Assembly (NCBI RefSeq): GCF_988242995.1
Contig: NZ_OZ547043.1
DNA: 64,000 bases
Direction: 5' to 3' (one strand)
Of this stretch, positions 43,974 to 59,157 are shown one piece after another. Under the pieces are notes generated by a model. That model saw nothing but the letters and a program-made list of their open reading frames with translations. It was not told where the DNA came from and did not search any database. A program made the position numbers and the translations under genes. Position 1 is the first letter of the stretch; every line of letters begins with the position of its first letter.

Positions 43974-44738
43974 ATGAAAGATGAACGTCGCCCTATTTGC
44001 GAAGTGGTTGCAGAGAGTATCGAACGGTTAATTATCGACGGCGTACTGAAGGTCGGTCAGCCGCTTCCCTCGGAACGTCGACTGTGTGAAAAGCTCGGCT
44101 TCTCACGCTCCGCACTGCGTGAAGGGCTGACCGTGCTGCGCGGGCGCGGGATTATTGAAACAGCGCAGGGTCGCGATTCTCGTGTCGCACGGCTTAATCG
44201 GGTGCAGGACACCAGCCCGCTAATTCATCTGTTCAGCACGCAGCCGCGAACGCTGTACGATCTGCTCGACGTTCGCGCATTGCTGGAGGGCGAATCGGCA
44301 AGGCTGGCGGCAACGCTGGGAACGCAGGCTGATTTTGTTGTGATAACCCGCTGTTATGAAAAAATGCTCGCCGCCAGTGAGAACAACAAAGAGATTTCGC
44401 TGATCGAACATGCACAGTTGGATCACGCTTTCCATCTCGCCATTTGTCAGGCTTCTCACAATCAGGTGTTGGTGTTTACGCTGCAATCATTGACCGATCT
44501 GATGTTTAATTCAGTGTTTGCCAGCGTAAATAATCTCTACCATCGACCACAGCAAAAAAAGCAGATCGATCGCCAGCATGCGCGGATCTACAACGCGGTG
44601 TTGCAGCGGCTGCCGCACGTCGCCCAGCGCGCAGCACGCGATCATGTGCGGACCGTGAAAAAGAATCTCCACGATATCGAGCTGGAAGGCCACCATTTGA
44701 TTCGCTCGGCGGTGCCGCTGGAGATGAAGCAGGGGTGA
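43974..44738 (+). CDS. glcC: GntR-family transcriptional activator of the glc operon
   Basis: Start set to MKDERRPICEV (254 aa); N-terminal winged HTH and FCD domain. Confidence 0.9.
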   Translation: MKDERRPICEVVAESIERLIIDGVLKVGQPLPSERRLCEKLGFSRSALREGLTVLRGRGIIETAQGRDSRVARLNRVQDTSPLIHLFSTQPRTLYDLLDVRALLEGESARLAATLGTQADFVVITRCYEKMLAASENNKEISLIEHAQLDHAFHLAICQASHNQVLVFTLQSLTDLMFNSVFASVNNLYHRPQQKKQIDRQHARIYNAVLQRLPHVAQRAARDHVRTVKKNLHDIELEGHHLIRSAVPLEMKQG

Positions 44739-44744
44739 CTGCCA

Positions 44745-45683
44745 TCAAATCTGCTTTTCATACAATCGGTAACGCTTGTACGGCTCTGCCCCAATGCGTT
44801 CCAGCATGTTATTCATGCCTGTATTGGTTTCGAGGATCCATGACATTTCCAGCGCATCGATCTTCCGGCGGGCAAACGGATCGCGTAAGGCTTCAATCAA
44901 TAACAGCGCAATCACCGGGCCGATGCGGCTAAACTGATACTCGTCCCGCACGCCCATCAGCGGTACTCGCGCAGTTCGCACACCGCTGACTTTTAAACGC
45001 CACAGCAATTTTGCCCAGCCGAAGGGAAAGAGCGATCCGTTCAGATCGGCAATCGCCTCGTTGATGTTTGGCAAGCCAACAATAAACGCGCAGGGTGCAG
45101 AATCAATCTCAGCGATGTAGATCATATCGTCCGGCACCAGATATTTAAGTTGATCGCCCATAGTCGCGAATTCATGTTCGGTAAACGGCACAAATCCCCA
45201 GTTGTGCTGCCAGCCAGAGTTGAAAATCTCACGCAGGATCTGCATCTCTTCGGCAAACCGCTGGCGATTGATGCAGCGAATGGTCACCTTCTTACGCACC
45301 TGATCCATCAGTTTTTTTAGCGCCGGAGAGAAAGTGAGATCGGTTCGCTGCATCCACCACGCTAGTAAATCAATGCCTTTGTGATAACCCAATTGTTCAA
45401 TATGCGCGGCATACCACGGTTTACCGTGCGGCATCATCGCACAGGGTGGTGTATCGAAACCTTCAATCAGTAATCCGCTTTCCTGATTGATATTCAGGCT
45501 GAAAGGACCGCTGATCTTACTTGCACCTTGTGACTTCAACCACGCTTCCGCTGCGCCAAACAACGCGGCAAAAACCTGCGGATCATCAATGGCGTCAATC
45601 ATGCCGAAATGACCGGTATCTTCACCGTAACGCTCGCGGTGCAAGGTATCTATTTGCACGGTAATACGCCCAACTATCTGCCC
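44745..45683 (-). pseudogene. yghO: yghO, C-terminal 312 codons, separated from its N-terminus by IS4
   Basis: Frame stays open from 45683 down to the stop at 44745 and is in phase with the N-terminal fragment at 47123-47326 once IS4 plus one copy of the target duplication are removed. Confidence 0.75.
45671..45683. repeat. Left copy of the 13-bp IS4 target-site duplication CAACTATCTGCCC
   Basis: Identical 13-mer at 47110-47122 immediately flanking the other IS4 end. Confidence 0.85.
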
Positions 45684-47109
45684 TAATGCCGATCAGTTAA
45701 GGATCAGTTGACCGATCCAGTGGCTGTGTAAGAATCCGGAAACGCTCACTTGTTTCCGGATTTTTTTATGCACATTGGACAGGCTCTTGATCTGGTATCC
45801 CGTTACGATTCTCTGCGTAACCCACTGACTTCTCTGGGGGATTACCTCGACCCCGAACTCATCTCTCGTTGCCTTGCCGAATCAGGTACTGTAACGCTAC
45901 GCAAGCGCCGTCTTCCCCTCGAAATGATGGTCTGGTGTATTGTTGGCATGGCGCTTGAGCGTAAAGAACCTCTTCACCAGATTGTGAATCGCCTGGACAT
46001 CATGCTGCCGGGCAATCGCCCCTTCGTTGCCCCCAGTGCCGTTATTCAGGCCCGCCAGCGCCTGGGAAGTGAGGCTGTCCGCCGCGTGTTCACGAAAACA
46101 GCGCAGCTCTGGCATAACGCCACGCCGCATCCGCACTGGTGCGGCCTGACCCTGCTGGCCATCGATGGTGTGTTCTGGCGCACACCGGATACACCAGAGA
46201 ACGATGCAGCCTTCCCCCGCCAGACACATGCCGGGAACCCGGCGCTCTACCCGCAGGTCAAAATGGTCTGCCAGATGGAACTGACCAGCCATCTGCTGAC
46301 GGCTGCAGCCTTCGGCACGATGAAGAACAGCGAAAATGAGCTTGCTGAGCAACTTATAGAACAAACCGGCGATAACACTCTGACGTTAATGGATAAAGGT
46401 TATTACTCACTGGGACTGTTAAATGCCTGGAGCCTGGCGGGAGAACACCGCCACTGGATGATACCTCTCAGAAAGGGAGCGCAATATGAAGAGATCAGAA
46501 AACTGGGTAAAGGCGATCATCTGGTGAAGCTGAAAACCAGCCCGCAGGCACGAAAAAAGTGGCCGGGACTGGGAAATGAAGTGACTGCCCGCCTGCTGAC
46601 CGTGACGCGCAAAGGAAAAGTCTGCCATCTGCTGACGTCGATGACGGACGCCATGCGCTTCCCCGGAGGAGAAATGGGGGATCTGTACAGTCATCGCTGG
46701 GAAATCGAACTGGGATACAGGGAGATAAAACAGACGATGCAACGGAGCAGGCTGACGCTGAGAAGTAAAAAGCCGGAGCTTGTGGAGCAAGAGCTGTGGG
46801 GTGTCTTACTGGCTTATAATCTGGTGAGATATCAGATGATTAAAATGGCGGAACATCTGAAAGGTTACTGGCCGAATCAACTGAGTTTCTCAGAATCATG
46901 CGGAATGGTGATGAGAATGCTGATGACATTGCAGGGCGCTTCACCGGGACGTATACCGGAGCTGATGCGCGATCTTGCAAGTATGGGACAACTTGTGAAA
47001 TTACCGACAAGAAGGGAAAGGGCCTTCCCGAGAGTGGTAAAGGAGAGGCCCTGGAAATACCCCACAGCCCCGAAAAAGAGCCAGTCAGTTGCTTAACTGA
47101 CTGGCATTA
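45684..47109 (+). mobile_element. IS4, complete 1426-bp copy
   Basis: Terminal inverted repeats TAATGCCGATCAGTTAAG (45684-45701) and CTTAACTGACTGGCATTA (47092-47109); length exactly 1426 bp; flanked by 13-bp direct repeats. Confidence 0.85.
45768..47096 (+). CDS. insG: IS4 transposase (DDE family)
   Basis: 442 aa from [16 protein letters not shown]..., recalled as the IS4 transposase; the track ORF adds six residues upstream. Confidence 0.85.
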
Positions 47110-47326
47110 CAACTATCTGCCCCGCTTTTTTTGCCACCCACGCCTGCCAGATGATATGGTCCGTCCCCGGATTTTTCGCAGACAAATGCTCGTTGCGTTC
47201 AATGAATAAAGGGGGTATCCAGTTTGGATCGTCGGGATAAAGTGATGACGGAAAAGCGATAAATGCCTTAAGGTCATTTTTATTAATTACTTTTTCAATT
47301 TTAATCATCAGCAGATCGCATTCCAT
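47110..47326 (-). pseudogene. yghO: yghO N-terminal fragment (68 codons) plus right copy of the IS4 target duplication
   Basis: MECDLLMIKIEKVINKNDLKAFIAF... reads in frame into the duplicated 13-mer (47110-47122), then terminates inside IS4 in the track ORF. Confidence 0.75.
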
Positions 47327-47697
47327 AGTTCTGTGGGTAACAAATAATTAACGGTGACAAACAGGTTGCAACAGCAACGAACGGCACCTTAATAATCAAC
47401 CCAATGAATACAAACGACGAATAAATAGTATTTATTAATGATTACGATAAGGTTAGAGACTACACAGAAGCGCCACAATGCCTTTTGTCGATTTAAGGCG
47501 ACCGGACAAGGCTTATTCTTAATATATTCATAAATTAAATATCATTCACAATAAAAACAAAAAAACTCAAACTCATTATTTAAATCAATGTTCATTTTCA
47601 CACTGATGAAAATACTATCTCATTTATCTTTTATGCCTATATAATCCACCGCATTATTGTCATTTTATTTTTGATATCCAATTTTTTCGTGGTGTAT

Positions 47698-49422
47698 ATG
47701 TCTAATAAAATCTTTACGCATTCCCTACCTATGCGCTATGCCGATTTTCCAACGCTGGTTGATGCTTTGGACTACGCCGCTCTGAGTAGCGCCGGAATGA
47801 ATTTTTATGACAGACGTTGCCAACTTGAAGATCAACTGGAATATCAGACGTTAAAAGCGCGTGCCGAAGCTGGTGCGAAGCGGTTGTTATCGCTGAACCT
47901 GAAAAAAGGCGATCGCGTGGCGCTGATTGCCGAAACCAGTAGCGGGTTCGTAGAGGCTTTTTTTTCCTGCCAGTATGCCGGCTTAGTCGCCGTCCCGTTG
48001 GCGATTCCAATGGGCGTCGGTCAGCGGGATTCCTGGAGCGCCAAACTGCAGGGTTTACTGGCAAGTTGCCAGCCCGCAGCCATTATCACTGGTGATGAGT
48101 GGTTACCGCTGGTCAATGCCGCGACGCATAACAACAACCCCGAATTACATGTTTTAAGCCACGCCTGGTTTAAGGCATTACCGGAAGCCGATGTTGCGCT
48201 CCAGCGTCCAGTTCCGAACGATATCGCCTACCTCCAGTACACCTCCGGCAGCACCCGTTTTCCCCGTGGCGTCATTATCACCCATCGCGAAGTGATGGCT
48301 AATCTACGTGCTATAAGCCACGATGGCATTAAATTACGCCCTGGCGACCGCTGCGTCTCCTGGCTGCCTTTCTACCATGATATGGGACTGGTCGGCTTTC
48401 TCCTGACCCCCGTCGCCACGCAGCTCTCAGTAGATTATTTGCGCACTCAGGATTTTGCCATGCGTCCTCTGCAATGGCTTAAATTGATCAGTAAAAATCG
48501 CGGCACCGTTTCCGTTGCGCCGCCGTTTGGCTATGAATTGTGCCAGCGCCGCGTGAATGAAAAAGATCTCGCTGAACTGGATCTTTCCTGCTGGCGCGTT
48601 GCTGGTATTGGTGCTGAGCCGATCTCCGCAGAACAACTCCATCAATTCGCTGAATGTTTCCGTCAGGTTAACTTTGACGATAAAACTTTCATGCCGTGCT
48701 ACGGACTGGCAGAAAATGCGCTGGCTGTCAGCTTCTCTGATGAAGCCTCCGGGGTTGTGGTTAACGAAGTGGATCGCGACATCCTTGAATATCAGGGCAA
48801 AGCCGTCGCGCCGGGTGCTGAAACACGCGCCGTATCGACTTTCGTCAACTGCGGTAAAGCGTTGCCGGAACATGGCATTGAAATCCGCAATGAAGCAGGT
48901 ATGCCGGTCGCGGAACGTGTGGTAGGCCATATTTGCATCTCCGGCCCTAGCCTGATGAGCGGTTACTTTGGCGACCAGATTTCACAAGACGAGATTGCCG
49001 CGACGGGCTGGTTAGACACCGGCGACCTCGGTTATCTGCTGGACGGTTATCTGTATGTCACCGGACGCATTAAAGATCTGATTATTATTCGTGGCCGTAA
49101 TATCTGGCCGCAGGATATTGAATATATTGCGGAACAGGAACCGGAAATTCATTCTGGCGATGCGATTGCTTTTGTTACCGCCCAGGAAAAAATCATTCTG
49201 CAGATCCAGTGTAGGATCAGCGACGAAGAACGTCGTGGGCAGCTTATCCACGCACTGGTAGCACGGATCCAAAGCGAATTTGGCGTAACAGCGGCTATCG
49301 ATCTGTTGCCGCCCCACAGTATTCCCCGAACGTCCTCCGGCAAGCCTGCCCGTGCGGAAGCGAAAAAACGTTATCAGAAGGCTTATGCTGCAAGCCTTCA
49401 TGTGCAGGAATCCCTGGCATGA
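47698..49422 (+). CDS. Fatty acyl-AMP ligase / acyl-ACP synthetase-like adenylating enzyme
   Basis: AMP-binding core motif YTSGSTRFPRGV; about 575 aa. Start uncertain (track uses TTG at 47671; first ATG is 47698). Confidence 0.7.
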   Translation: MSNKIFTHSLPMRYADFPTLVDALDYAALSSAGMNFYDRRCQLEDQLEYQTLKARAEAGAKRLLSLNLKKGDRVALIAETSSGFVEAFFSCQYAGLVAVPLAIPMGVGQRDSWSAKLQGLLASCQPAAIITGDEWLPLVNAATHNNNPELHVLSHAWFKALPEADVALQRPVPNDIAYLQYTSGSTRFPRGVIITHREVMANLRAISHDGIKLRPGDRCVSWLPFYHDMGLVGFLLTPVATQLSVDYLRTQDFAMRPLQWLKLISKNRGTVSVAPPFGYELCQRRVNEKDLAELDLSCWRVAGIGAEPISAEQLHQFAECFRQVNFDDKTFMPCYGLAENALAVSFSDEASGVVVNEVDRDILEYQGKAVAPGAETRAVSTFVNCGKALPEHGIEIRNEAGMPVAERVVGHICISGPSLMSGYFGDQISQDEIAATGWLDTGDLGYLLDGYLYVTGRIKDLIIIRGRNIWPQDIEYIAEQEPEIHSGDAIAFVTAQEKIILQIQCRISDEERRGQLIHALVARIQSEFGVTAAIDLLPPHSIPRTSSGKPARAEAKKRYQKAYAASLHVQESLA

Positions 49423-50333
49423 ATCAAACTGTCGCGGTGACGGGCGCTACCGGGTTTATCGGTAAATATATTATCGATAACCTGCTCGCCCGCGGCTTTC
49501 ACGTTCGCGCATTGACGCGTACTGCCCGCGCTCACGTCAATGACAATCTCATCTGGGTGCGCGGTTCTCTGGAAGATACTCATTCACTTAGCGAACTGGT
49601 TGCCGGAGCCAGCGCGGTGGTCCATTGCGCCGGACAAGTGCGCGGGCACAAAGAAGAGATTTTTACCCGCTGTAACGTTGACGGCAGCCTGCGACTGATG
49701 CAAGCGGCAAAAGAGAGCGGCTTTTGCCAACGTTTTCTGTTTATCTCTTCGCTGGCGGCGCGCCATCCCGAACTCTCCTGGTACGCAAATTCCAAACACG
49801 TCGCCGAACAACGGCTGACTGCAATGGCTGATGAAATTACGCTGGGCGTTTTTCGTCCGACAGCCGTGTATGGTCCCGGCGATAAAGAGTTAAAACCGCT
49901 GTTTGACTGGATGCTGCGCGGCCTGCTGCCACGACTTGGTGCGCCAGATACACAACTCTCTTTCCTGCACGTCACCGATTTTGCGCAAGCAGTGGGTCAG
50001 TGGTTAAACGCCGAAACTGTACAGACGCAAACCTATGAATTATGCGATGGCGTCGCTGGCGGCTATGACTGGCAACGCGTACGACAGCTTGCCGCCGAAG
50101 CCCGTTGTGGTTCTGTGCGGATGGTTGGCATTCCTCTGCCGCTACTCACCTGCCTTGCGGATATCAGTACTGCGTTGAGTCGCCTGGCAGGTAAAGAACC
50201 TATGCTGACCCGCTCGAAAATTCGTGAATTAACCCACGCCGACTGGTCGGCAAATAATAACCGTATTTCTGAAGATATTAATTGGTTTCCCGGGATTAGC
50301 CTGGAACACGCATTACGCAACGGGCTATTTTGA
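49419..50333 (+). CDS. NAD(P)-dependent reductase of the extended SDR (epimerase/dehydratase) family
   Basis: N-terminal Rossmann motif TGATGFIG and catalytic YANSK (YxxxK); ATGA overlap with the upstream ligase. Confidence 0.7.
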   Translation: MNQTVAVTGATGFIGKYIIDNLLARGFHVRALTRTARAHVNDNLIWVRGSLEDTHSLSELVAGASAVVHCAGQVRGHKEEIFTRCNVDGSLRLMQAAKESGFCQRFLFISSLAARHPELSWYANSKHVAEQRLTAMADEITLGVFRPTAVYGPGDKELKPLFDWMLRGLLPRLGAPDTQLSFLHVTDFAQAVGQWLNAETVQTQTYELCDGVAGGYDWQRVRQLAAEARCGSVRMVGIPLPLLTCLADISTALSRLAGKEPMLTRSKIRELTHADWSANNNRISEDINWFPGISLEHALRNGLF

Positions 50334-50364
50334 TTGTCTTGTTTAAAGGTGTGTTAACGTTTCT

Positions 50365-50613
50365 ATGGTAAATCGTGAAATAGTAATGGATTACATCCTT
50401 TCCTGTTTACAGGATTTGGTCGAAAACGGTGTGGAAATTAAGCCCGACAGCGATCTCGTCAACGATCTTGGCCTGGAGTCGATCAAAGTGATGGATCTCT
50501 TAATGATGCTGGAAGACAGATTCGATATTTCCATTCCTATTAATATTCTGCTGGATGTCAAAACCCCTGCGCAATTAATGGAAACACTACTTCCATGGCT
50601 GGAGAATAAATAA
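50365..50613 (+). CDS. Acyl carrier protein
   Basis: 82 aa four-helix-sized protein with phosphopantetheine-site-like DLGLESIKVMDL. Confidence 0.65.
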   Translation: MVNREIVMDYILSCLQDLVENGVEIKPDSDLVNDLGLESIKVMDLLMMLEDRFDISIPINILLDVKTPAQLMETLLPWLENK

Positions 50614-51785
50614 TGGGGCTATACGATAAATATGCGCGCCTTGCTGGCGAGCGACTGCAATTTAGTGACAACGGGTTAACACCGTTTGGCACCTGTATTG
50701 ATGAAGTGTATTCCGCCACCGAAGGTCGGATCGGCAATAAAAAAGTGATTCTGGCCGGGACCAATAATTATCTCGGTTTAACCTTTAATCATGATGCCAT
50801 CGCCGAAGGTCAGGCAGCATTAGCGGCCCAAGGCACCGGCACCACCGGTTCTCGTATGGCAAACGGCAGTTATGCGCCGCATCTGGCGTTAGAGAAAGAG
50901 ATCGCCGAGTTTTTTAATCGCCCTACCGCTATCGTTTTTTCAACCGGTTATACCGCTAATTTAGGCGTCATCAGCGCACTTGCCGACCATAACGCCGTGG
51001 TGTTACTGGATGCCGACAGCCACGCCAGTATTTATGACGCCTGTTCTCTCGGTGGCGCGGAAATTATTCGTTTCCGCCATAACGATGCTAAAGATCTGGA
51101 ACGGCGCATGGTTCGCCTCGGTGAACGGGCAAAAGAGGCGATTATCATCGTTGAAGGCATCTACAGTATGCTCGGTGACGTTGCGCCGCTGGCGGAAATT
51201 GTTGATATCAAACGTCGTCTCGGTGGTTATTTGATTGTCGATGAAGCGCATTCGTTTGGCGTGTTAGGCGCAACGGGGCGCGGACTGGCTGAAGCCGTTG
51301 GCGTTGAAGATGATGTGGATATTATCGTTGGTACTTTCAGTAAAAGTCTGGCCTCGATTGGCGGTTTTGCTGTCGGTTCGGAAGCGATGGAAGTGCTGCG
51401 CTACGGCAGCCGCCCGTATATTTTTACCGCCTCTCCTTCTCCGTCCTGCATTGCGACCGTGCGCTCGTCGTTAAGAACCATTGCTACACAACCAGAGTTG
51501 CGGCAAAAGCTGATGGATAATGCCAACCATCTGTATGACGGTCTGCAAAAACTGGGTTATGAGTTAAGTTCACATATTAGCCCGGTAGTGCCAGTAATAA
51601 TCGGTTCGAAAGAGGAAGGTTTACGCATCTGGCGCGAGCTTATTTCGCTGGGCGTTTATGTGAATCTTATCCTGCCACCTGCCGCGCCTGCAGGCATCAC
51701 GCTGCTGCGCTGTAGCGTAAACGCTGCCCACAGTCGTGAGCAAATCGATGCCATCATTCAGGCATTTGCTACTCTGAAGCAGTAA
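50613..51785 (+). CDS. PLP-dependent alpha-oxoamine synthase (serine palmitoyltransferase / 8-amino-7-oxononanoate synthase family)
   Basis: 390 aa with the family blocks FSTGYTANLG, HASIYDA, DEAHSFGVLG and the PLP-lysine motif GTFSKSLASIGGF; TAATG overlap with the ACP gene. Confidence 0.75.
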   Translation: MGLYDKYARLAGERLQFSDNGLTPFGTCIDEVYSATEGRIGNKKVILAGTNNYLGLTFNHDAIAEGQAALAAQGTGTTGSRMANGSYAPHLALEKEIAEFFNRPTAIVFSTGYTANLGVISALADHNAVVLLDADSHASIYDACSLGGAEIIRFRHNDAKDLERRMVRLGERAKEAIIIVEGIYSMLGDVAPLAEIVDIKRRLGGYLIVDEAHSFGVLGATGRGLAEAVGVEDDVDIIVGTFSKSLASIGGFAVGSEAMEVLRYGSRPYIFTASPSPSCIATVRSSLRTIATQPELRQKLMDNANHLYDGLQKLGYELSSHISPVVPVIIGSKEEGLRIWRELISLGVYVNLILPPAAPAGITLLRCSVNAAHSREQIDAIIQAFATLKQ

Positions 51786-51819: not shown

Positions 51820-52899
51820 TTAATGTTGACTGTCATACCAATACACCAGGCTCAACGCCACCAGCACAAACACTATCGGTAAACCGAGCGCGGTAACAGG
51901 TGCGCTCAACGCAAATAACAATCCCAGATTGACCATGATTTGATAGCTGATCCAGGTGAGTAAGCCAACGATGACGCCTACAGCGAGACGGCTACCCATC
52001 CCTGGCGAGCGCGGGGCGCTAAAGGTAAACGGCACAGCCAGCAAAATCATCGCCAGAGTTAAGATGGGTTGCCCCAGTTTTTCCCACAGTGCAAGGCGGT
52101 AATCGCTGCTGGGTTGCCCGGTTTCCTGCAAATAATGGATGTAATGATTAAGCTGACGGACAGAAAAAGTATTCCCCGGCATCGATAACTCTTCAAGATC
52201 CATACTGGTGAAGGCCGATTGCCAGGCAAGATTATCTGATGTTTCCAGCGTTTCTTTGCCATTCAACCATTTTTTATGATTCACACCATGCAGGATCCAC
52301 GTTTTGTCGTCTTCAATGGAGGCACTGCGTGCAAAAATGTAGGATTCGAGCGAGAGATCGTCGCGATAATGAAATATCTCCACGCCCACAGGCTGGCCCT
52401 GCTCGTTCAGCGATTTCACCGTCACAAATTCATTACCGCGCCTGGCCCAAAGCATATTGCCGGTAATGTCATCGTCCTCCCCCAACGCGGTGGCAGTCGA
52501 TTTGATTTGCAGCGCCTGTTGCTGCAATGGCGACGCCACCCACTCATCTATCGCGCCTAACGAAACAGTCCACAATATCCCGGCAACCAGCGCCACCAGT
52601 GCAATACGGAAGATAGAAAACCCAGTGCTGCGAATGGCGGTAAGCTCACTGTTTTTCGATAACTGCCCCAGGCCAACAATCCCTCCCAATAATGCGATAA
52701 ACGGCGAAAGTTCGACCAGTGTACGCGGTAAGGTCATCAGCACCACCAGCACCGCCTGAGTCCAGCGATAACCACCCGGGCTGACATCATCCAGTTCGTT
52801 AATCAGGTTGAAGGTGGTAAAAAGCGGCAGCAATAGCCCTGCGGCGGCGGCAAAACCGAGAAAGAGATGACGGATTAAATAGCGACTGAAAACATTCAT
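51820..52899 (-). CDS. LptG/LptF-family (YjgP/YjgQ) permease, second of a pair
   Basis: Start set to MNVFSRYLIRHLF (ATGA overlap with the upstream paralogue); six-helix permease-like hydrophobicity with a large periplasmic loop. Confidence 0.65.
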   Translation of the reverse strand: MNVFSRYLIRHLFLGFAAAAGLLLPLFTTFNLINELDDVSPGGYRWTQAVLVVLMTLPRTLVELSPFIALLGGIVGLGQLSKNSELTAIRSTGFSIFRIALVALVAGILWTVSLGAIDEWVASPLQQQALQIKSTATALGEDDDITGNMLWARRGNEFVTVKSLNEQGQPVGVEIFHYRDDLSLESYIFARSASIEDDKTWILHGVNHKKWLNGKETLETSDNLAWQSAFTSMDLEELSMPGNTFSVRQLNHYIHYLQETGQPSSDYRLALWEKLGQPILTLAMILLAVPFTFSAPRSPGMGSRLAVGVIVGLLTWISYQIMVNLGLLFALSAPVTALGLPIVFVLVALSLVYWYDSQH

Positions 52900-53966
52900 C
52901 GGGAAAATTTCTGCAGCAATGAGAAGTCGCGTGCGACCAGCATCAGCAGGCCCATTAGCATGAGTCCGGGTACTAACCACAAACCAGGAATGAGGGGAAT
53001 CGCGCCGTTAGCCACCAGCGTACGGCAGACGTCGCCGCCATAAAAAATGGCAATAAACAGCAACGTCAGTGGCAATAATGTTGAAAATCGCCCTTGCCGC
53101 GGTTTTACCCGACTTAATGAAATGGCCAGCAGCGCCATCAACAATGCTGTCAGGCCACGGCTTTGTCGCCATTGCAGTTCGGCATGATCGGCTGGAAAGA
53201 CGGAGCGCGCCAGCTCCGTGACCGATTTTGCTTTGCGTTTGACGTTAGGGCTTTGATCCAGCGGATTCAGATGTAATTGCAGATTACGGTAGATCTGTTC
53301 GTTGTCGTCACGCCCCTGATGATCGAGAAGATAGGCGGTCCCGTTATGCAACATAACGGTCGGTTTCTCAGGTGATGGGTCAACCACATCAACCGAACGG
53401 GCGCGGAAAATGCGGGTTCGATTGGCAGTAGAAGTATAAATCAGCGCGTCAGTCAGGCGATTATTATCCTGATCAACCGTCTGCGAAAGGATCATTCGTC
53501 CGTTATCGTTAGTGTTAAATTTCTTTGCCCGCAACTGGCGAACATCCAGCTCCGACTGTGACTGTTGCTCCAGTTGATAAATCTGCGCATAAGCCCACGG
53601 ACGACCATACATCGACAGAAGGGTGACAAAAATACTTAGCGGTATCGCCAGATAAAGAACGGCTTTGTACAAGCGTCCCGGACTGCCCCCCGCCGCAGAA
53701 ATAGCGGTAATTTCCGAGTCGGTATACATCTGCCCTAGCGTCACGCCAACTGACACATACAGTCCAACAGGTAACAACATCTCCAGTGCAATCAGCACCT
53801 TGTAGAAAACAATATCCAGCACAACATCAAGAGCTAATGTCCCATTTGCCGCTTCGGTCAGATAACGCTGTGCGGAGTAGCTGGCGAAAATAAAGATCAG
53901 AAAACCGACGATAATCAGCACCAGACGGCGCGTACCACGCATGATGTAGTGTTCAACCAGCTTCAT
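52896..53966 (-). CDS. LptF/LptG-family (YjgP/YjgQ) permease, first of a pair
   Basis: 356 aa beginning MKLVEHYIMRGTRRLVLIIVGFLIF, same family architecture as the downstream paralogue. Confidence 0.65.
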   Translation of the reverse strand: MKLVEHYIMRGTRRLVLIIVGFLIFIFASYSAQRYLTEAANGTLALDVVLDIVFYKVLIALEMLLPVGLYVSVGVTLGQMYTDSEITAISAAGGSPGRLYKAVLYLAIPLSIFVTLLSMYGRPWAYAQIYQLEQQSQSELDVRQLRAKKFNTNDNGRMILSQTVDQDNNRLTDALIYTSTANRTRIFRARSVDVVDPSPEKPTVMLHNGTAYLLDHQGRDDNEQIYRNLQLHLNPLDQSPNVKRKAKSVTELARSVFPADHAELQWRQSRGLTALLMALLAISLSRVKPRQGRFSTLLPLTLLFIAIFYGGDVCRTLVANGAIPLIPGLWLVPGLMLMGLLMLVARDFSLLQKFSR

Positions 53967-53996: not shown

Positions 53997-54560
53997 TTAT
54001 TCATTGATCAGTTTCTGCGCCAGCGCAATGACATGTTCTACCTCTTCCGGCGTCAGGCTGCCGTCCTTTGCCCACTGAATTTGCCCGGCTTTATTCAGCA
54101 CCAGAATGGTTGAACTCTGCTCCGGCAACCGCCAGGCAACGCGTCCCTGTCCATTGCCGTCAATAACGAATTGCGCCCACGGATAGCGGCGTTTATTTTT
54201 TTCGATTTTGCCAACGACAAAATAGCCAGTACCAAAAATGGCATCATCGGTGTTCACAATGGTGGTGGGCTGAAAACGATCCTGCGGAAAGTTTGCCGCT
54301 TCAACCGCTTTAATTAACAGTGAGTTCTTTTTCTTCGCCGACTTACGCCCGGCGATATACTGAATAATGCGAACTTTTCCCGCCAGCTGTGTGCTGTTCC
54401 ACTTTTGGTAGTGAATTTCGTCGTCGCTATTCAGAAGCAGCTCGCCGCCTTCCTGGATATAAACAGGGGTAACCGTTTTGCCAGTGACGAAATTGTGTGC
54501 CTGCACACCCGGGGCTAAGAGCATGATAATCAGCGCAATAATCAAACGAGATGACATCAT
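53997..54560 (-). CDS. Secreted/periplasmic protein, YtfJ-like
   Basis: 187 aa with cleavable signal peptide (MMSSRLIIALIIMLLAPGVQA); family assignment is from recall only. Confidence 0.45.
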   Translation of the reverse strand: MMSSRLIIALIIMLLAPGVQAHNFVTGKTVTPVYIQEGGELLLNSDDEIHYQKWNSTQLAGKVRIIQYIAGRKSAKKKNSLLIKAVEAANFPQDRFQPTTIVNTDDAIFGTGYFVVGKIEKNKRRYPWAQFVIDGNGQGRVAWRLPEQSSTILVLNKAGQIQWAKDGSLTPEEVEHVIALAQKLINE

Positions 54561-54568
54561 TGCTCCGG

Positions 54569-55393
54569 TTATAGCGGAAAACGCGAAATCAGCAGCTCTA
54601 AGCGCTGGCGAATATCGCTATCCAGCGCCACCGGTGCATCATACGACTGGCGGTTTTCCATATCATCCGCCACCATGTCGTCGTGTTTATCCCCCATCAG
54701 GCCATTAATGGCGGCGAGGAAGCGGGAAATCTGTAACGCCTCTTTATTTTCAGGATCAAGCGATCTTAGGGTGTCGTAATAAGAAACCTGCTGGCTGATG
54801 ATTTTTCGCACATCATGAAATTCCCTGCCAGTTAGTCGCGGTTTGGCAATTATCTCTTTCAGGGTATGCATTTGCTTTTGCCGATAGGCAATAAAACCGC
54901 TTACGCTTTCTAACTGGCTATGGCGTAATGAATAGTTCACCAACGACCAGACCGGAGAGCTTAAATAAACCCGTAACAGGTTGCCGTAATACGACACAAT
55001 ATTTTTCTTACCGTTACGAAAGCCGTCCTGAAAACGCCCCAAAAAAACGGTCGTTTTGCCGAATAAAAATCCGGCCTGATGCTTTTTTAAATACAGCCGT
55101 TGCGCAAAACGCAGGTGCTTGTAGCGCGCTCGCATGTATTTAAATTGTTTGCGCTCATCAGCAGTCAGCTCATCGCCTTTGGCCTGTTTGCATATTAAAC
55201 GCAGTAACTCCTGGCGATTGACGCCATTGAGCCAGAATTGCAGGCATAACGCGTAATTATCATGGATGATTTCGGTGGTACAACTTAGTGCGATAGTCGG
55301 CGGCAAACTGACCTGTGCATCAACGACATCATCTTCTTCAATCGCAACAAATAGACGCTCGCTAGCCTCAAGCGGGAAATATTTTCTCATCAT
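54569..55393 (-). CDS. Conserved hypothetical protein, no recognised domain
   Basis: 274 aa basic soluble protein; 1-bp overlap with the upstream flippase gene. Confidence 0.45.
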   Translation of the reverse strand: MMRKYFPLEASERLFVAIEEDDVVDAQVSLPPTIALSCTTEIIHDNYALCLQFWLNGVNRQELLRLICKQAKGDELTADERKQFKYMRARYKHLRFAQRLYLKKHQAGFLFGKTTVFLGRFQDGFRNGKKNIVSYYGNLLRVYLSSPVWSLVNYSLRHSQLESVSGFIAYRQKQMHTLKEIIAKPRLTGREFHDVRKIISQQVSYYDTLRSLDPENKEALQISRFLAAINGLMGDKHDDMVADDMENRQSYDAPVALDSDIRQRLELLISRFPL

Positions 55394-56742
55394 CAGGATT
55401 TCTCTCCGGCTGCGTTATAAAGCAAGGAATGGCGCTGAAAAAATGCCTTTAAGGTTGGAATTAGCGAGAGCACCACATCCAGACATTGCCCAGCGAAGTA
55501 AGCAAATGCAGCCCCCAGCACGCCAAACAGATGACAGAACATGAACAGCAATACGATGTAGCCGATTGAGGCGATGGTTTGCGCCACGAGAAAAGCACGC
55601 TGTTTTCCCGCCATCAATAGCAATGACTCCTGTGGGAAGCCCAGCATCGAAATCACAATTGCGCCCAGCATCACCTGAATCAGGTCATACGCTTCGAGAT
55701 ACTTAACGCCAAACACCAGCGAAATGAGCGGCTTGCCGACGATCAACACCGCGAGCGCCACCAGAATACCGATTCCGCCCGCCAGTAAACCGGACTTCAC
55801 GCCTAACAACCACGGTCTGGTGGTGCGCGGATCTAAACGCATCACCTCTGGGTAAAAACTTTTACCCAGTAAACCCGCTGGCGTTCCGGCGGCGTCGAAG
55901 AATGTCATGGCGATTTTAAATAACCCGGCGGCAGCGGGTCCTAACACGATCCCCACCAACACTGTGCTGCACGAGTTACGTGCCGACCAGATGGAGTGGG
56001 CAATGTTGGTTGACCAGACAAAACTCCACGCGCCTTTAATGTGTCGGGCAGACTCAAACAGATTCAATTTGAAGGCGTTATGGATATTTCTGCGGCGTAA
56101 TTCGCGCGCGGCAAACCACCAGTACATGGTGCCGCCAACCAGATTCGACACGTACCAGGCAATAACAAAACCCGCAAAACCAAAGTCAAAATACCAGGCT
56201 ACGACGCTCCCCGCTGCGCGCAGAAAAGGTTTCGTCGCTTGCTGTACAGCAATTAGATCGAAGCGATCTACCGCACGCAGAATGCCGGTCGGCGTGGAGG
56301 AAGCCATTGAAGGAATGAGCGTGCAATACAGCGCGGCCAGCCAAAAGCTTTGGTCATCCAGACCTAATGAATGGGAAAGAAAAGGGAGTAAGGCAATGCC
56401 GCCGACAATCGCCACCGCGCCGCTGACGATATCCAGCGAGAAGGAAAATGAGACGACATTGCGGAATTGCTGCGGATTATTGTTGGTTAATGCTGGTGTT
56501 CCGTACTGCACCACCAACTGCCATGTCTGAAACTTAATAAAATCGCTGATCGACTTGGCGTACGATTGCACAATCACCAGTACGCCAAACATGGCGGGCG
56601 TCATCCCTTTACCGGCACACGAGAGCGCCAACAAACCCAGCAAGGCGCTCACGACATTACTGGAGCCTAACCAGGCGCTATTGCGAATAATGGTGCGAAA
56701 CGCGCCATCTGCAAACCAATGTTTGATGTTAAAACCCGCCAA
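55393..56742 (-). CDS. yghQ: Wzx-like (MOP superfamily) flippase
   Basis: 449 aa polytopic protein with N-terminal IIRNSAWLGSSNVVSALLGLLAL typical of polysaccharide-biosynthesis flippases; adjacent to yghR. Confidence 0.6.
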   Translation of the reverse strand: MAGFNIKHWFADGAFRTIIRNSAWLGSSNVVSALLGLLALSCAGKGMTPAMFGVLVIVQSYAKSISDFIKFQTWQLVVQYGTPALTNNNPQQFRNVVSFSFSLDIVSGAVAIVGGIALLPFLSHSLGLDDQSFWLAALYCTLIPSMASSTPTGILRAVDRFDLIAVQQATKPFLRAAGSVVAWYFDFGFAGFVIAWYVSNLVGGTMYWWFAARELRRRNIHNAFKLNLFESARHIKGAWSFVWSTNIAHSIWSARNSCSTVLVGIVLGPAAAGLFKIAMTFFDAAGTPAGLLGKSFYPEVMRLDPRTTRPWLLGVKSGLLAGGIGILVALAVLIVGKPLISLVFGVKYLEAYDLIQVMLGAIVISMLGFPQESLLLMAGKQRAFLVAQTIASIGYIVLLFMFCHLFGVLGAAFAYFAGQCLDVVLSLIPTLKAFFQRHSLLYNAAGEKS

Positions 56743-56787
56743 TTCAGCCTGACCTTATCGTTGATAGTAAAAAGTATCCCGCCAGCC

Positions 56788-57546
56788 TTAAGTTAAACTT
56801 CGGCGGTCAGAAACGATGGCAACCAGAGAAACCGCCTTCTGTGCCTGTTCCAGCACCTCGCTGTAAGGCGCTCTGGAATCAATCTCAAGAATTTTTGTGC
56901 CGTTATAGCCAATCGTCGACATGACGCCGATTTTGTCCTGCAGCTCGGCATAGTCATGGTCAGGCTTGCGGGAGATGGCAGTATCAATATCAATCCCCAA
57001 GCGAATGATTAATTCAGGACGGTATTGCGCCATTTGTTGGTATAAACGCCGTTCGCGCTGCGCCAGAAACATGCTGATTTTCCCGGTCGCACGTTCGACG
57101 CCGATCCCCGGTCCGTCATAATAAAAGCCCGAAATTTCAGCCTGCGGGAAGCGATCGCTGACCACCAGAACGCCACTTTGCGCCAGTCGCTGAACCTTGC
57201 GTAGATTCGCCATTCTTCGCAGCGAGAAGCAGTACATAATCACCGCCGCCCATAGCGCTGGAGATTTGGTTTTCATGCTTTGGGTTTTCGAGGATTTGGC
57301 CGCCAGTCGCCGTTCGAGCCAGACGCCAACCAACGGCAATCGTTTGATTTTGTCGCCGTCTTCGCCGGAGAGCAGCCCCAAATAGCGGCGCTCGGTTTGC
57401 CAGTGTTGTTGCAGCGATTTCACCAGGTCGGTGGTCAGCGTGGATTTACCGGTGCCATCACACCCGACCACCGCAATCAGCCCCGGAATGTAGTTGGGCT
57501 GCGGCACGGTTGTACTATTAACAGTTTGTGTTTGTAGTGCATCCAT
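56788..57546 (-). CDS. yghR: P-loop NTPase, thymidylate-kinase-like putative kinase
   Basis: 252 aa with N-terminal Walker A VVGCDGTGKSTL; paralogue of the next two genes. Confidence 0.7.
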   Translation of the reverse strand: MDALQTQTVNSTTVPQPNYIPGLIAVVGCDGTGKSTLTTDLVKSLQQHWQTERRYLGLLSGEDGDKIKRLPLVGVWLERRLAAKSSKTQSMKTKSPALWAAVIMYCFSLRRMANLRKVQRLAQSGVLVVSDRFPQAEISGFYYDGPGIGVERATGKISMFLAQRERRLYQQMAQYRPELIIRLGIDIDTAISRKPDHDYAELQDKIGVMSTIGYNGTKILEIDSRAPYSEVLEQAQKAVSLVAIVSDRRSLT

Positions 57547-57577
57547 TCGTTAAATCATCCCCTATCCATTTTGGTGA

Positions 57578-58291
57578 TCAGGAAAGCGCGGCGTGAATTG
57601 CGCGTAGTGACGCTTGCATAATTTCATCGGCTGGTTGCCGACCATCCAGTTCAAGGATCCTGGCGCCATTGAATGTCAGTTGCGGCGTAACGGCGATTTT
57701 TTCCTGTAACGCCGCCAGTTGATGGTCAGGTTTACGCGAAAACGCGGTTTGTTCATCAATGCCAAGACGAATCAACAATACGGGCAAATAAGACGCCATC
57801 CATTGGTACAGCTTCAGCTCGCGCTGCCTTAACATTTTTATCCAGCCGTTACCGCCCGTGGTTTTTGCCAATTGCGGGCCATCAAAGCGAAAACCCGGCA
57901 CTTCAACCTGCGGGTAGCGGTCGGTGATGAGCAGATAGCCTTGCTGGCTTTTACACAACATTTTGCGAAACTTGTACGCCCGCCAGCAGGAAAGCAGATA
58001 GATAACCAGCGCAGTAATATTGCCAGGCGGTGTTAAGGGCTTTTCGTGCACATGTGCCGCTTTACTTCGCAAATAACGCCCAAAAGGTGCGCCAATAACA
58101 GGGAGCTGTGAAATCCATTCGCCAATTCGCCCGGACGATTGCCCGAGATAAATGTGTTCTGTTGGCATTGTTGCTGCCAGTTCATTTACCAGGCTTGCCG
58201 TGAGGGTCGATTTACCTGAACCATCACATCCTACAATGGCAATAACACGCACTGGCGTGGAATTAATTATTGACATATTACGTTGATTCAC
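57578..58291 (-). CDS. yghS: P-loop NTPase, thymidylate-kinase-like putative kinase
   Basis: 237 aa, Walker A IVGCDGSGKSTL; collinear with yghR. Confidence 0.7.
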   Translation of the reverse strand: MNQRNMSIINSTPVRVIAIVGCDGSGKSTLTASLVNELAATMPTEHIYLGQSSGRIGEWISQLPVIGAPFGRYLRSKAAHVHEKPLTPPGNITALVIYLLSCWRAYKFRKMLCKSQQGYLLITDRYPQVEVPGFRFDGPQLAKTTGGNGWIKMLRQRELKLYQWMASYLPVLLIRLGIDEQTAFSRKPDHQLAALQEKIAVTPQLTFNGARILELDGRQPADEIMQASLRAIHAALS

Positions 58292-58464
58292 GAAAAACCC
58301 GGCAGCAAATAATGTATTGAATATTACGTGGTCCGTGCTCAGAATATCCGTTCAACCTTATTGTGACAATGGTTAATTGTGACATTGACCTGAATTACGC
58401 TTTCATAAAAACATATTAACCAAATAAATATTTTTAATGGATATTTAAATTAAAGGATATATTC

Positions 58465-59157
58465 ATGCAGTCAATAACACCTCCATTAATTGCCGTTATT
58501 GGTAGCGATGGTTCAGGCAAGTCAACGGTGTGTGAACATCTCATTACCGTTGTCGAAAAATATGGTGCTGCCGAAAGAGTTCATTTAGGAAAACAGGCCG
58601 GAAATGTCGGTCGTGCAGTGACAAAATTACCGTTGATGGGAAAATCCTTACATAAAACAATTGAACGAAATCAGGTGAAAACAGCAAAAAAATTGCCAGG
58701 ACCAGTTCCGGCGCTGGTAATTACAGCGTTTGTCGCCCGTCGCTTACTGCGCTTTCGTCATATGCTTGCCTGTCGTCGTCGCGGGTTAATTGTTCTAACC
58801 GACCGTTATCCTCAGGACCAAATTCCTGGCGCTTACGATGGTACAGTGTTCCCGCCTAACGTTGAAGGCGGCCGGTTTGTCTCATGGCTGGCAAGCCAGG
58901 AACGTAAAGCGTTTCACTGGATGGCGAGCCATAAACCTGATCTGGTCATCAAACTCAATGTCGATCTGGACGTGGCCTGCGCGCGTAAGCCTGACCACAA
59001 AAGAGAATCGCTGGAAAGGAAGATAGCCATAACGCCACAGTTAACCTTTGGAGGCGCGCAACTGGTTGATATCGATGCCAATCAACCGCTGGAACAAGTG
59101 CTGGTTGATGCGGAAAAAGCGATTACGGATTTTATGACCGCGCGTGGTTATCACTAG
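58465..59157 (+). CDS. yghT: P-loop NTPase, thymidylate-kinase-like putative kinase
   Basis: 230 aa, Walker [13 protein letters not shown]; divergent from yghS. Confidence 0.7.

Follow-up and report, generated by a model that had tools for sequence, protein, structure and literature searches.

The yghO gene of the Escherichia coli DNA analysed here, a stretch of 64,000 nucleotides from contig NZ_OZ547043.1 of assembly GCF_988242995.1 (the window), raises two questions: (i) whether its product is the N-acyltransferase partner of the amino-alcohol pathway encoded beside it, as an original prediction from the bare letters had proposed; and (ii) what that pathway would yield in this isolate, in which yghO (44745-47326, minus strand; placed by its reading frames and by the anatomy of the insertion) is split by a copy of the insertion sequence IS4. 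The neighbouring operon encodes a fatty acyl-AMP ligase (equivalent to AasR), a short-chain dehydrogenase/reductase (SDR; equivalent to CerR), an acyl carrier protein (ACP; AcpR) and a serine palmitoyltransferase (Spt). From homology and structure modelling, it is highly likely that YghO is the E. coli orthologue of the bacterial ceramide synthase (bCerS), a soluble protein of two GNAT domains, and that IS4 blocks N-acylation in the isolate. The role itself is not new, having been published as a prediction in 2022.

The split yghO gene

The element that divides yghO is a complete IS4 with its target-site duplication. It occupies 1,426 bp on the plus strand (45684-47109), as delimited by inverted repeats and Pfam domains, and it agrees with IS4 in its size of about 1.4 kb, its terminal inverted repeats of 18 nt (45684-45701 and 47092-47109), its 13-bp duplication and its IS4-type DDE transposase. 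The transposase is encoded by an open reading frame (ORF) of 448 aa on the plus strand (45750-47096; likely ATG at 45768), which matches the Pfam domains Nterm_IS4 (E 3e-33) and DDE_Tnp_1 (E 3e-31). The duplication is a perfect direct repeat, CAACTATCTGCCC, with a left copy at 45671-45683 and a right copy at 47110-47122; the range expected for an IS4 target duplication is 11-13 bp.

Two pieces of the gene are left, both on the minus strand and both assigned from ORF calls and reconstruction, the second also from the structure model. The 5′ part (47110-47326) holds the start codon at 47326 and native codons 1-72, and the ORF that reads from this ATG (47093-47326, minus strand, 77 aa) consists of 72 native YghO residues and five IS-derived ones, followed by a stop. 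The 3′ part (44745-45683) covers residues 69-380 and the stop codon, and encodes the remainder of the N-terminal GNAT domain together with the entire C-terminal one. Its minus-strand ORF of 304 aa, which ends at 44745, has only an internal GTG as its start. When IS4 and one copy of the repeat are removed in silico, an uninterrupted yghO frame of 1,143 nt and 380 aa is restored, and its product is identical at 380 of 380 positions to WP_001329413.1, called 'protein YghO' by the Prokaryotic Genome Annotation Pipeline (PGAP) in strain BEC1-S17-ESBL-09, an unrelated isolate.

The source genome has no intact, expressible yghO, because codons 69-73 are interrupted by IS4. According to the structure model, the target site CAACTATCTGCCC encodes residues G69-G73, which form part of the β2-β3 hairpin of the N-terminal GNAT domain; in the 374-residue numbering the site overlaps G67 and adjoins R68, both of which are invariant or nearly invariant across the YghO family. 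Should the 304-codon ORF be translated nevertheless, the N-terminal domain of the resulting protein would be without most of its first three strands and first helices. Because the protein read from the native start leaves YghO after residue 72 and the remainder is without these N-terminal elements, loss of YghO function is expected.

The age of the insertion can be judged from its distribution. A query of 3.1 kb spanning both IS4 junctions found the yghO::IS4 allele in none of 5,426 complete E. coli genomes, the sample from which the marginal counts given below for yghO, the operon and their junction were also taken; the best matches cover the flanks only, at up to 99.9% identity, a value reached by strain 18KM2445, whose yghO is intact. 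Apart from yghO, the genes of the window from glcC to pitB are free of stops and show 96-100% protein identity to those of the reference isolate. Since the sample lacks the allele and the other genes of the locus are all undamaged, the insertion looks recent and private, and the isolate probably represents a natural ceramide-synthase null of recent origin.

Two other lesions were found at the same locus. In K-12 MG1655 (L088, 5999-9364) an IS5-associated deletion has taken away the start of yghO and all genes beyond it as far as the middle of yghQ. In strain Ec-RL2-1X (L089, 8288-14702) an IS1-associated deletion has taken most of yghO together with the glc region, and an internal stop is present in lptG2. 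Insertion sequences of three families have thus damaged this locus independently, namely IS4 in the window, IS5 in K-12 and IS1 in Ec-RL2-1X.

YghO and the bacterial ceramide synthase

The original prediction of a soluble protein of about 380 aa was borne out by the reconstruction. YghO has 380 residues, none of them in a predicted membrane helix (maximum Kyte-Doolittle 19-residue mean 1.36; grand average of hydropathy -0.16), and its structure model is globular, with no long hydrophobic helix. Because the sequence libraries gave no family (no match in Pfam or NCBIfam at E < 0.1, and chance-level matches only among PDB sequences), the fold was assigned by structure prediction. In the model the whole chain consists of two GNAT domains, with a predicted local distance difference test score (pLDDT) above 95, and the acyltransferase fold that had been proposed for the protein is thus found twice. 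The proposal had placed it in the C-terminal half. A GNAT domain is indeed predicted there, and PF00583 (GNAT) is matched at residues ~212-357 in three homologues (25-27 bits against a cutoff of 20.7), E. coli YghO itself scoring nothing; but the proposal was incomplete, because the N-terminal half is modelled as a second, more degenerate GNAT domain. The C-terminal domain is presumed to be the catalytic one, which binds the acyl donor. Five of its residues, R301, G306, E341, W344 and N349 in the 374-residue numbering, are invariant across the family. The accompanying suggestion of a FemAB-like fold did not hold, since that structural match is far weaker than the one to acyl-CoA GNATs. Membership in the FemABX family of aminoacyl-tRNA-dependent transferases was rejected, as Fem-type proteins are not the closest structural neighbours.

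The tandem-GNAT structures that resemble the model (MAB_4324 7q3a, ORF14 2wpw, MshD 1ozp, N-myristoyltransferase 2p6e and Eis) share 11-17% identity with YghO. They act on other acceptors, and their donors carry acetyl groups instead of long chains, N-myristoyltransferase excepted. Eukaryotic ceramide synthases (Lag1/CerS) carry out the same chemical step, the N-acylation of a sphingoid base, but they are polytopic membrane proteins with a TLC domain. Because YghO has no TLC match and no membrane helix, it would be an unrelated, convergent solution. The YghO family comprises 6,417 clusters at 50% identity when E is at most 1e-3, and 1,114 when E is at most 1e-30, nearly all of them ~375-390 aa in length. 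Legacy database names for it, 'DNA-binding protein' and 'dATP pyrophosphohydrolase', were rejected because the whole chain is predicted to fold as two GNAT domains; both persist in public databases (P0046, P0101, P0116, P0271, P0277 and others). NCBIfam offers an equivalog model for the neighbouring Spt and none for the YghO ceramide synthase family.

The reference point for bCerS is CC_1154 of Caulobacter crescentus (CCNA_01212; also Aca, CerS or bCerS), which genetic work by two groups showed to be required for dihydroceramide formation. The field's working homology cut-off for bCerS is E at most 1e-30 with at least 50% coverage. For yghO of E. coli BL21(DE3) (ECD_02850), a match to CC_1154 with 44% identity, 98% coverage and E 1e-107 has been published; yghO was named there as the CC_1154 homologue and N-acylation of sphinganine by YghO was suggested (Padilla-Gómez et al. 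2022). In our own direct alignment, in which a homologue from Phenylobacterium (Caulobacteraceae) stood in for CC_1154 itself, YghO is 45% identical from end to end over 374 aa (E 2e-105). The stand-in was taken from a search started with the Caulobacterales homologue, whose matches were relatives from Phenylobacterium and from metagenomes. Examined for membership in the bCerS family by sequence and model, YghO displays full-length homology, a GNAT fold, association with spt, cerR, acpR and aasR, and the features predicted for a soluble, cytoplasmic protein. The resemblance extends to a length of about 375-380 aa, a GNAT signal in the C-terminal half, a soluble character (predicted for YghO; the Caulobacter enzyme is cytoplasmic) and a position near spt, acpR, cerR, aasR and lptF2/G2, the last two encoding paralogues of lipopolysaccharide (LPS) export permeases. 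The arrangement differs in one respect: E. coli yghO is directly divergent from aasR, whereas the Caulobacter gene stands at the far end of its locus, beside lptG2.

Divergent transcription of yghO and a ligase-SDR-ACP-synthase operon, a feature of the original prediction, is confirmed in the window, where the operon occupies 47698-51785 on the plus strand. An uninterrupted yghO (at least 80% coverage) is present in 4,529 of the 5,426 complete genomes, the four-gene divergent operon in 4,067 (75%), and a contiguous yghO-ligase junction in 4,090. Association beyond E. coli was assessed with one genome per species and a 25-sequence YghO alignment, a 130-sequence alignment being too divergent for the scan, and neighbours were scored by tblastn with the E. 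coli proteins. The resulting 80 species loci contain YghO homologues of 41-96% identity and span the gamma-, beta- and alpha-proteobacteria, Nitrospirae, Gemmatimonadetes, Methylomirabilis and Desulfobacterota; 52 of them had at least 9 kb on both sides. Spt lies within 10 kb of the YghO homologue in 34 of these 52 full-flank loci, all four base-forming genes are nearby in 29, and LptF/G paralogues are nearby in 34; a sphingolipid gene or an LptF/G paralogue is found in 49. By both the E. coli counts and the 49 species loci, then, the distribution of yghO is tightly coupled to that of the lipid locus rather than independent of it, and the proposed partnership gains support from orthology to CC_1154, predicted fold and synteny together.

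The species loci also fall into recognisable gene orders. The divergent arrangement of YghO and ligase-SDR-ACP-Spt recurs in Serratia liquefaciens, Pluralibacter gergoviae and Erwinia billingiae, with different outer neighbours, and the operon is conserved across the Enterobacterales at 60-88% identity. The gene order of Caulobacter is reproduced in a Caulobacterales locus (L084), where AasR-SDR-ACP-Spt is followed by a gap of ~4 kb and then by the YghO homologue. In Nitrosomonas and Nitrosospira (L025-L031, L038-L042, L045, L048, L064, L085; about 11900-14200) the YghO homologue is followed by LptF/LptG paralogues with 30-35% identity to E. coli LptF2/G2, and not by Spt. This arrangement in the ammonia oxidisers mirrors the adjacency of bCerS, lptG2 and lptF2 in Caulobacter and fits a 2026 preprint on LptF2/G2 (see below); spt sits elsewhere in these genomes, as published for N. 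eutropha (Padilla-Gómez et al. 2022).

There are observations that weigh against YghO as a ceramide synthase. The assignment draws on orthology, fold and synteny; YghO itself lacks a Pfam or NCBIfam match at the threshold given above and a significant match among PDB sequences; and our literature search found no paper reporting native E. coli ceramide or YghO enzymology. Even in Caulobacter the acyl donor may be either a coenzyme A or an ACP thioester, and the acceptor may be 3-oxo-sphinganine or sphinganine. Some 460 E. coli genomes, including K-12, retain most of yghO without the operon, 3 of the 52 full-flank loci, those of Luteibacter, Dyella and bacterium HR40, have no lipid gene nearby, and Shimwellia pseudoproteus (L015, 10001-11152) has a further YghO paralogue that is 74% identical and does not belong to any lipid locus. 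The family may accordingly not be strictly single-function. The Shimwellia orphan lies downstream of hisS-yfgM-bamB-der, beside an enterochelin-esterase-like gene and a fused ABC transporter.

Some of these exceptions could mean that YghO is a GNAT acyltransferase for another amine, such as an amino acid, a polyamine, a sugar amine or a protein lysine, and that its adjacency to the operon is accidental or accessory. The persistence of yghO in K-12 without the operon and the orphan paralogue of Shimwellia would fit such a role, as would the nearest solved structures, which acetylate glucosamine, mycothiol precursors or aminoglycosides, and the listing of YghO among the GNAT candidates in an E. 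coli lysine-acetyltransferase screen. However, those structural neighbours are only 11-17% identical to YghO, which in full-length alignment reaches 44-45% identity with a protein that dihydroceramide synthesis depends on; the K-12 gene is a 5′-truncated remnant of an IS5-mediated deletion and not proof of an independent function; and linkage to Spt/AcpR/AasR/CerR or to LptF2/G2 spans several phyla. We therefore consider another amine substrate very unlikely. The divergent layout is also typical of local regulators, and some database entries keep the designation 'DNA-binding protein', in line with the legacy annotation of YghO as a DNA-binding transcriptional regulator of the divergent operon. 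That possibility is effectively refuted by the predicted fold, because the two GNAT domains fill the chain and neither a helix-turn-helix nor any other DNA-binding domain is seen in the model; nor did any regulator family match in the Pfam and NCBIfam scans.

The proposed pathway and the expected effect of the insertion

If YghO is the ceramide synthase, a pathway of four steps can be proposed for the locus. The ligase (47698-49422, plus strand; NF006624, 870 bits), a specialised acyl-ACP synthetase equivalent to AasR, would load a fatty acid onto AcpR, a specialised acyl carrier protein of 82 aa (50365-50613, plus strand; Pfam), and Spt (50613-51785, plus strand; NF047599 equivalog, 600 bits against a cutoff of 500) would join acyl-AcpR with serine to give 3-oxo-sphinganine, both reactions having been shown for the E. 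coli B proteins. YghO, with an acyl thioester as donor, would then add a second acyl chain to the C2 amine, as orthology, fold and synteny suggest; by analogy with other tandem GNATs, its C-terminal domain probably binds the donor, and the N-terminal domain probably helps to form the acceptor site. The SDR (49419-50333, plus strand; Pfam), an NAD-dependent epimerase/dehydratase-type enzyme equivalent to the CerR or 'epi' keto-reductase, would reduce the 3-keto group, and whether it does so before or after acylation is disputed. Finally, LptF2/G2 and the flippase-like YghQ would move the product outward. All four operon genes are intact in the window. For E. coli B, AasR, AcpR and Spt were reported to be active, and ceramide-like spots on thin-layer chromatography were attributed to intrinsic BL21 enzymes; of the seven Rhodobacteria that the study compared, Caulobacter and E. 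coli BL21 alone have the five genes in a cluster (Padilla-Gómez et al. 2022).

Because only yghO is broken and the other genes of the locus are intact, N-acylation is the one step at which the pathway would be blocked. Ceramide should then be absent from the isolate, and synthesis should go no further than 3-oxo-sphinganine or sphinganine. Which of the two depends on the order of the last reactions. In Caulobacter, Spt and bCerS are cytoplasmic and CerR is periplasmic, which favours acylation before reduction, although the eukaryote-like order is still defended. With acylation first and a periplasmic CerR, the block would leave 3-oxo-sphinganine; with reduction first, it would leave sphinganine. 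The isolate thus probably stops at 3-oxo-sphinganine (or sphinganine). The original expectation, that the isolate would make the free base or nothing at all, is roughly right, but it hinges on this order, the product being 3-oxo-sphinganine if acylation comes first, and on whether the operon is expressed.

The matter of expression leads to a different view of the insertion, namely that it has no functional consequence: with a locus that is silent or vestigial in E. coli, the isolate would have the same phenotype as its relatives with an intact yghO. The AT-rich promoter region is compatible with a silent locus, and so are the independent lesions in K-12 and in Ec-RL2-1X, where lptG2 has an internal stop as well; no report of a native E. 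coli sphingolipid was found in the literature search. On the other hand, the 13 genes from yghO to yghT are 96-100% conserved at the protein level when the window is compared with an unrelated isolate, 75% of complete genomes retain the operon, which is also conserved across the Enterobacterales at 60-88% identity, and the AasR, AcpR and Spt proteins of E. coli B are active. Conservation of the genes within E. coli and across the Enterobacterales indicates purifying selection and argues for function under some condition. We regard an irrelevant insertion as unlikely, though worth taking seriously.

A broader scenario is that wild E. coli natively makes an undescribed ceramide-based outer-membrane lipid, and that the isolate is an otherwise isogenic ceramide-synthase null that accumulates 3-oxo-sphinganine. 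In this tentative scenario, which we hold to be possible though somewhat doubtful, the head group would be installed by YghR/S/T, a 274-aa protein and the flippase YghQ, and the whole block from yghO to yghT is kept in ~75% of complete genomes. Caulobacter-type loci lack genes of the yghQRST and 274-aa types, so the lipid would not be the same as the ceramide phosphoglycerates of Caulobacter. An implication is that the recurrent hits by IS4, IS5 and IS1 would point to niches in which the lipid is selected against.

Studies of the Gram-negative envelope take E. coli as their reference organism, and it is taught as free of sphingolipids. To judge from sequence and structural models, three quarters of complete E. 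coli genomes carry an apparently functional ceramide pathway, with YghO as its probable acylating enzyme. K-12 lost the locus by an IS5-mediated deletion, which explains why the pathway was overlooked. The value of the window is narrower: it presents a natural isolate with only the ceramide synthase step knocked out, of modest interest and useful mainly as a natural tool. The intermediate that accumulates in this isolate would bear on the disputed order of acylation and reduction, and the difference between its lipids and those of a near-identical relative with intact yghO on whether E. coli makes ceramide.

Neighbouring regions and genes

The glcBGFED operon and glcC precede yghO, ending at 44738, and on the other side the plus-strand operon begins near 47698. 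The divergent intergenic region between yghO and the ligase (47327-47697) is untouched by IS4 and has a GC content of about 32%, compared with about 52% in its flanks. Strongly AT-rich regions are often silenced by nucleoid proteins, and the composition of this one might explain why the pathway goes unseen in laboratory cultures. A promoter and terminator scan of 44600-47800 gave sites no more numerous than in shuffled sequence.

Beyond spt, on the minus strand, lie intact genes for LptG2 (51820-52899) and LptF2 (52896-53966), identified as LPS-export permease paralogues by homology and by Pfam and NCBIfam matches. They overlap by 4 bp, which suggests translational coupling. PGAP labels the two products plainly as 'LptG' and 'LptF', like the essential LPS permeases. 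LptF2/G2 were flagged in 2024, and the 2026 preprint, which draws the locus of E. coli UTI89, shows that they are needed for sphingolipid transport; the products in the window are presumed to be sphingolipid exporters.

The next segment (53997-59157) contains a YtfJ-like gene, the gene for the 274-aa protein, the flippase-like yghQ and the three weakly dTMP-kinase-like P-loop genes yghR, yghS and yghT. The P-loop matches of YghR/S/T are all below threshold, and the 274-aa protein has no family or PDB match. Among the loci L001, L005, L016, L020, L013 and L037, these genes travel together with the Spt/YghO block in several Enterobacterales, and in a betaproteobacterial metagenome-assembled genome YghR/S-like genes (54-55% identity) stand between Spt and a YghO homologue; genes of the yghQRST and 274-aa types are absent from the Caulobacterales-type locus L084. 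Our literature search found no paper that ties yghQRST and the 274-aa gene to sphingolipids. The whole segment, including the YtfJ-like gene, provides candidates for head-group or transport functions.

A further lipid gene appears outside E. coli. In S. liquefaciens (L001/L002, 11354-11716) and E. billingiae (L005/L006, 11323-11682), a small DAGK_prokar (DgkA-like) gene lies directly downstream of the yghO homologue, in the position held by glcC in E. coli. Its product may be a lipid kinase that acts on the product of the pathway.

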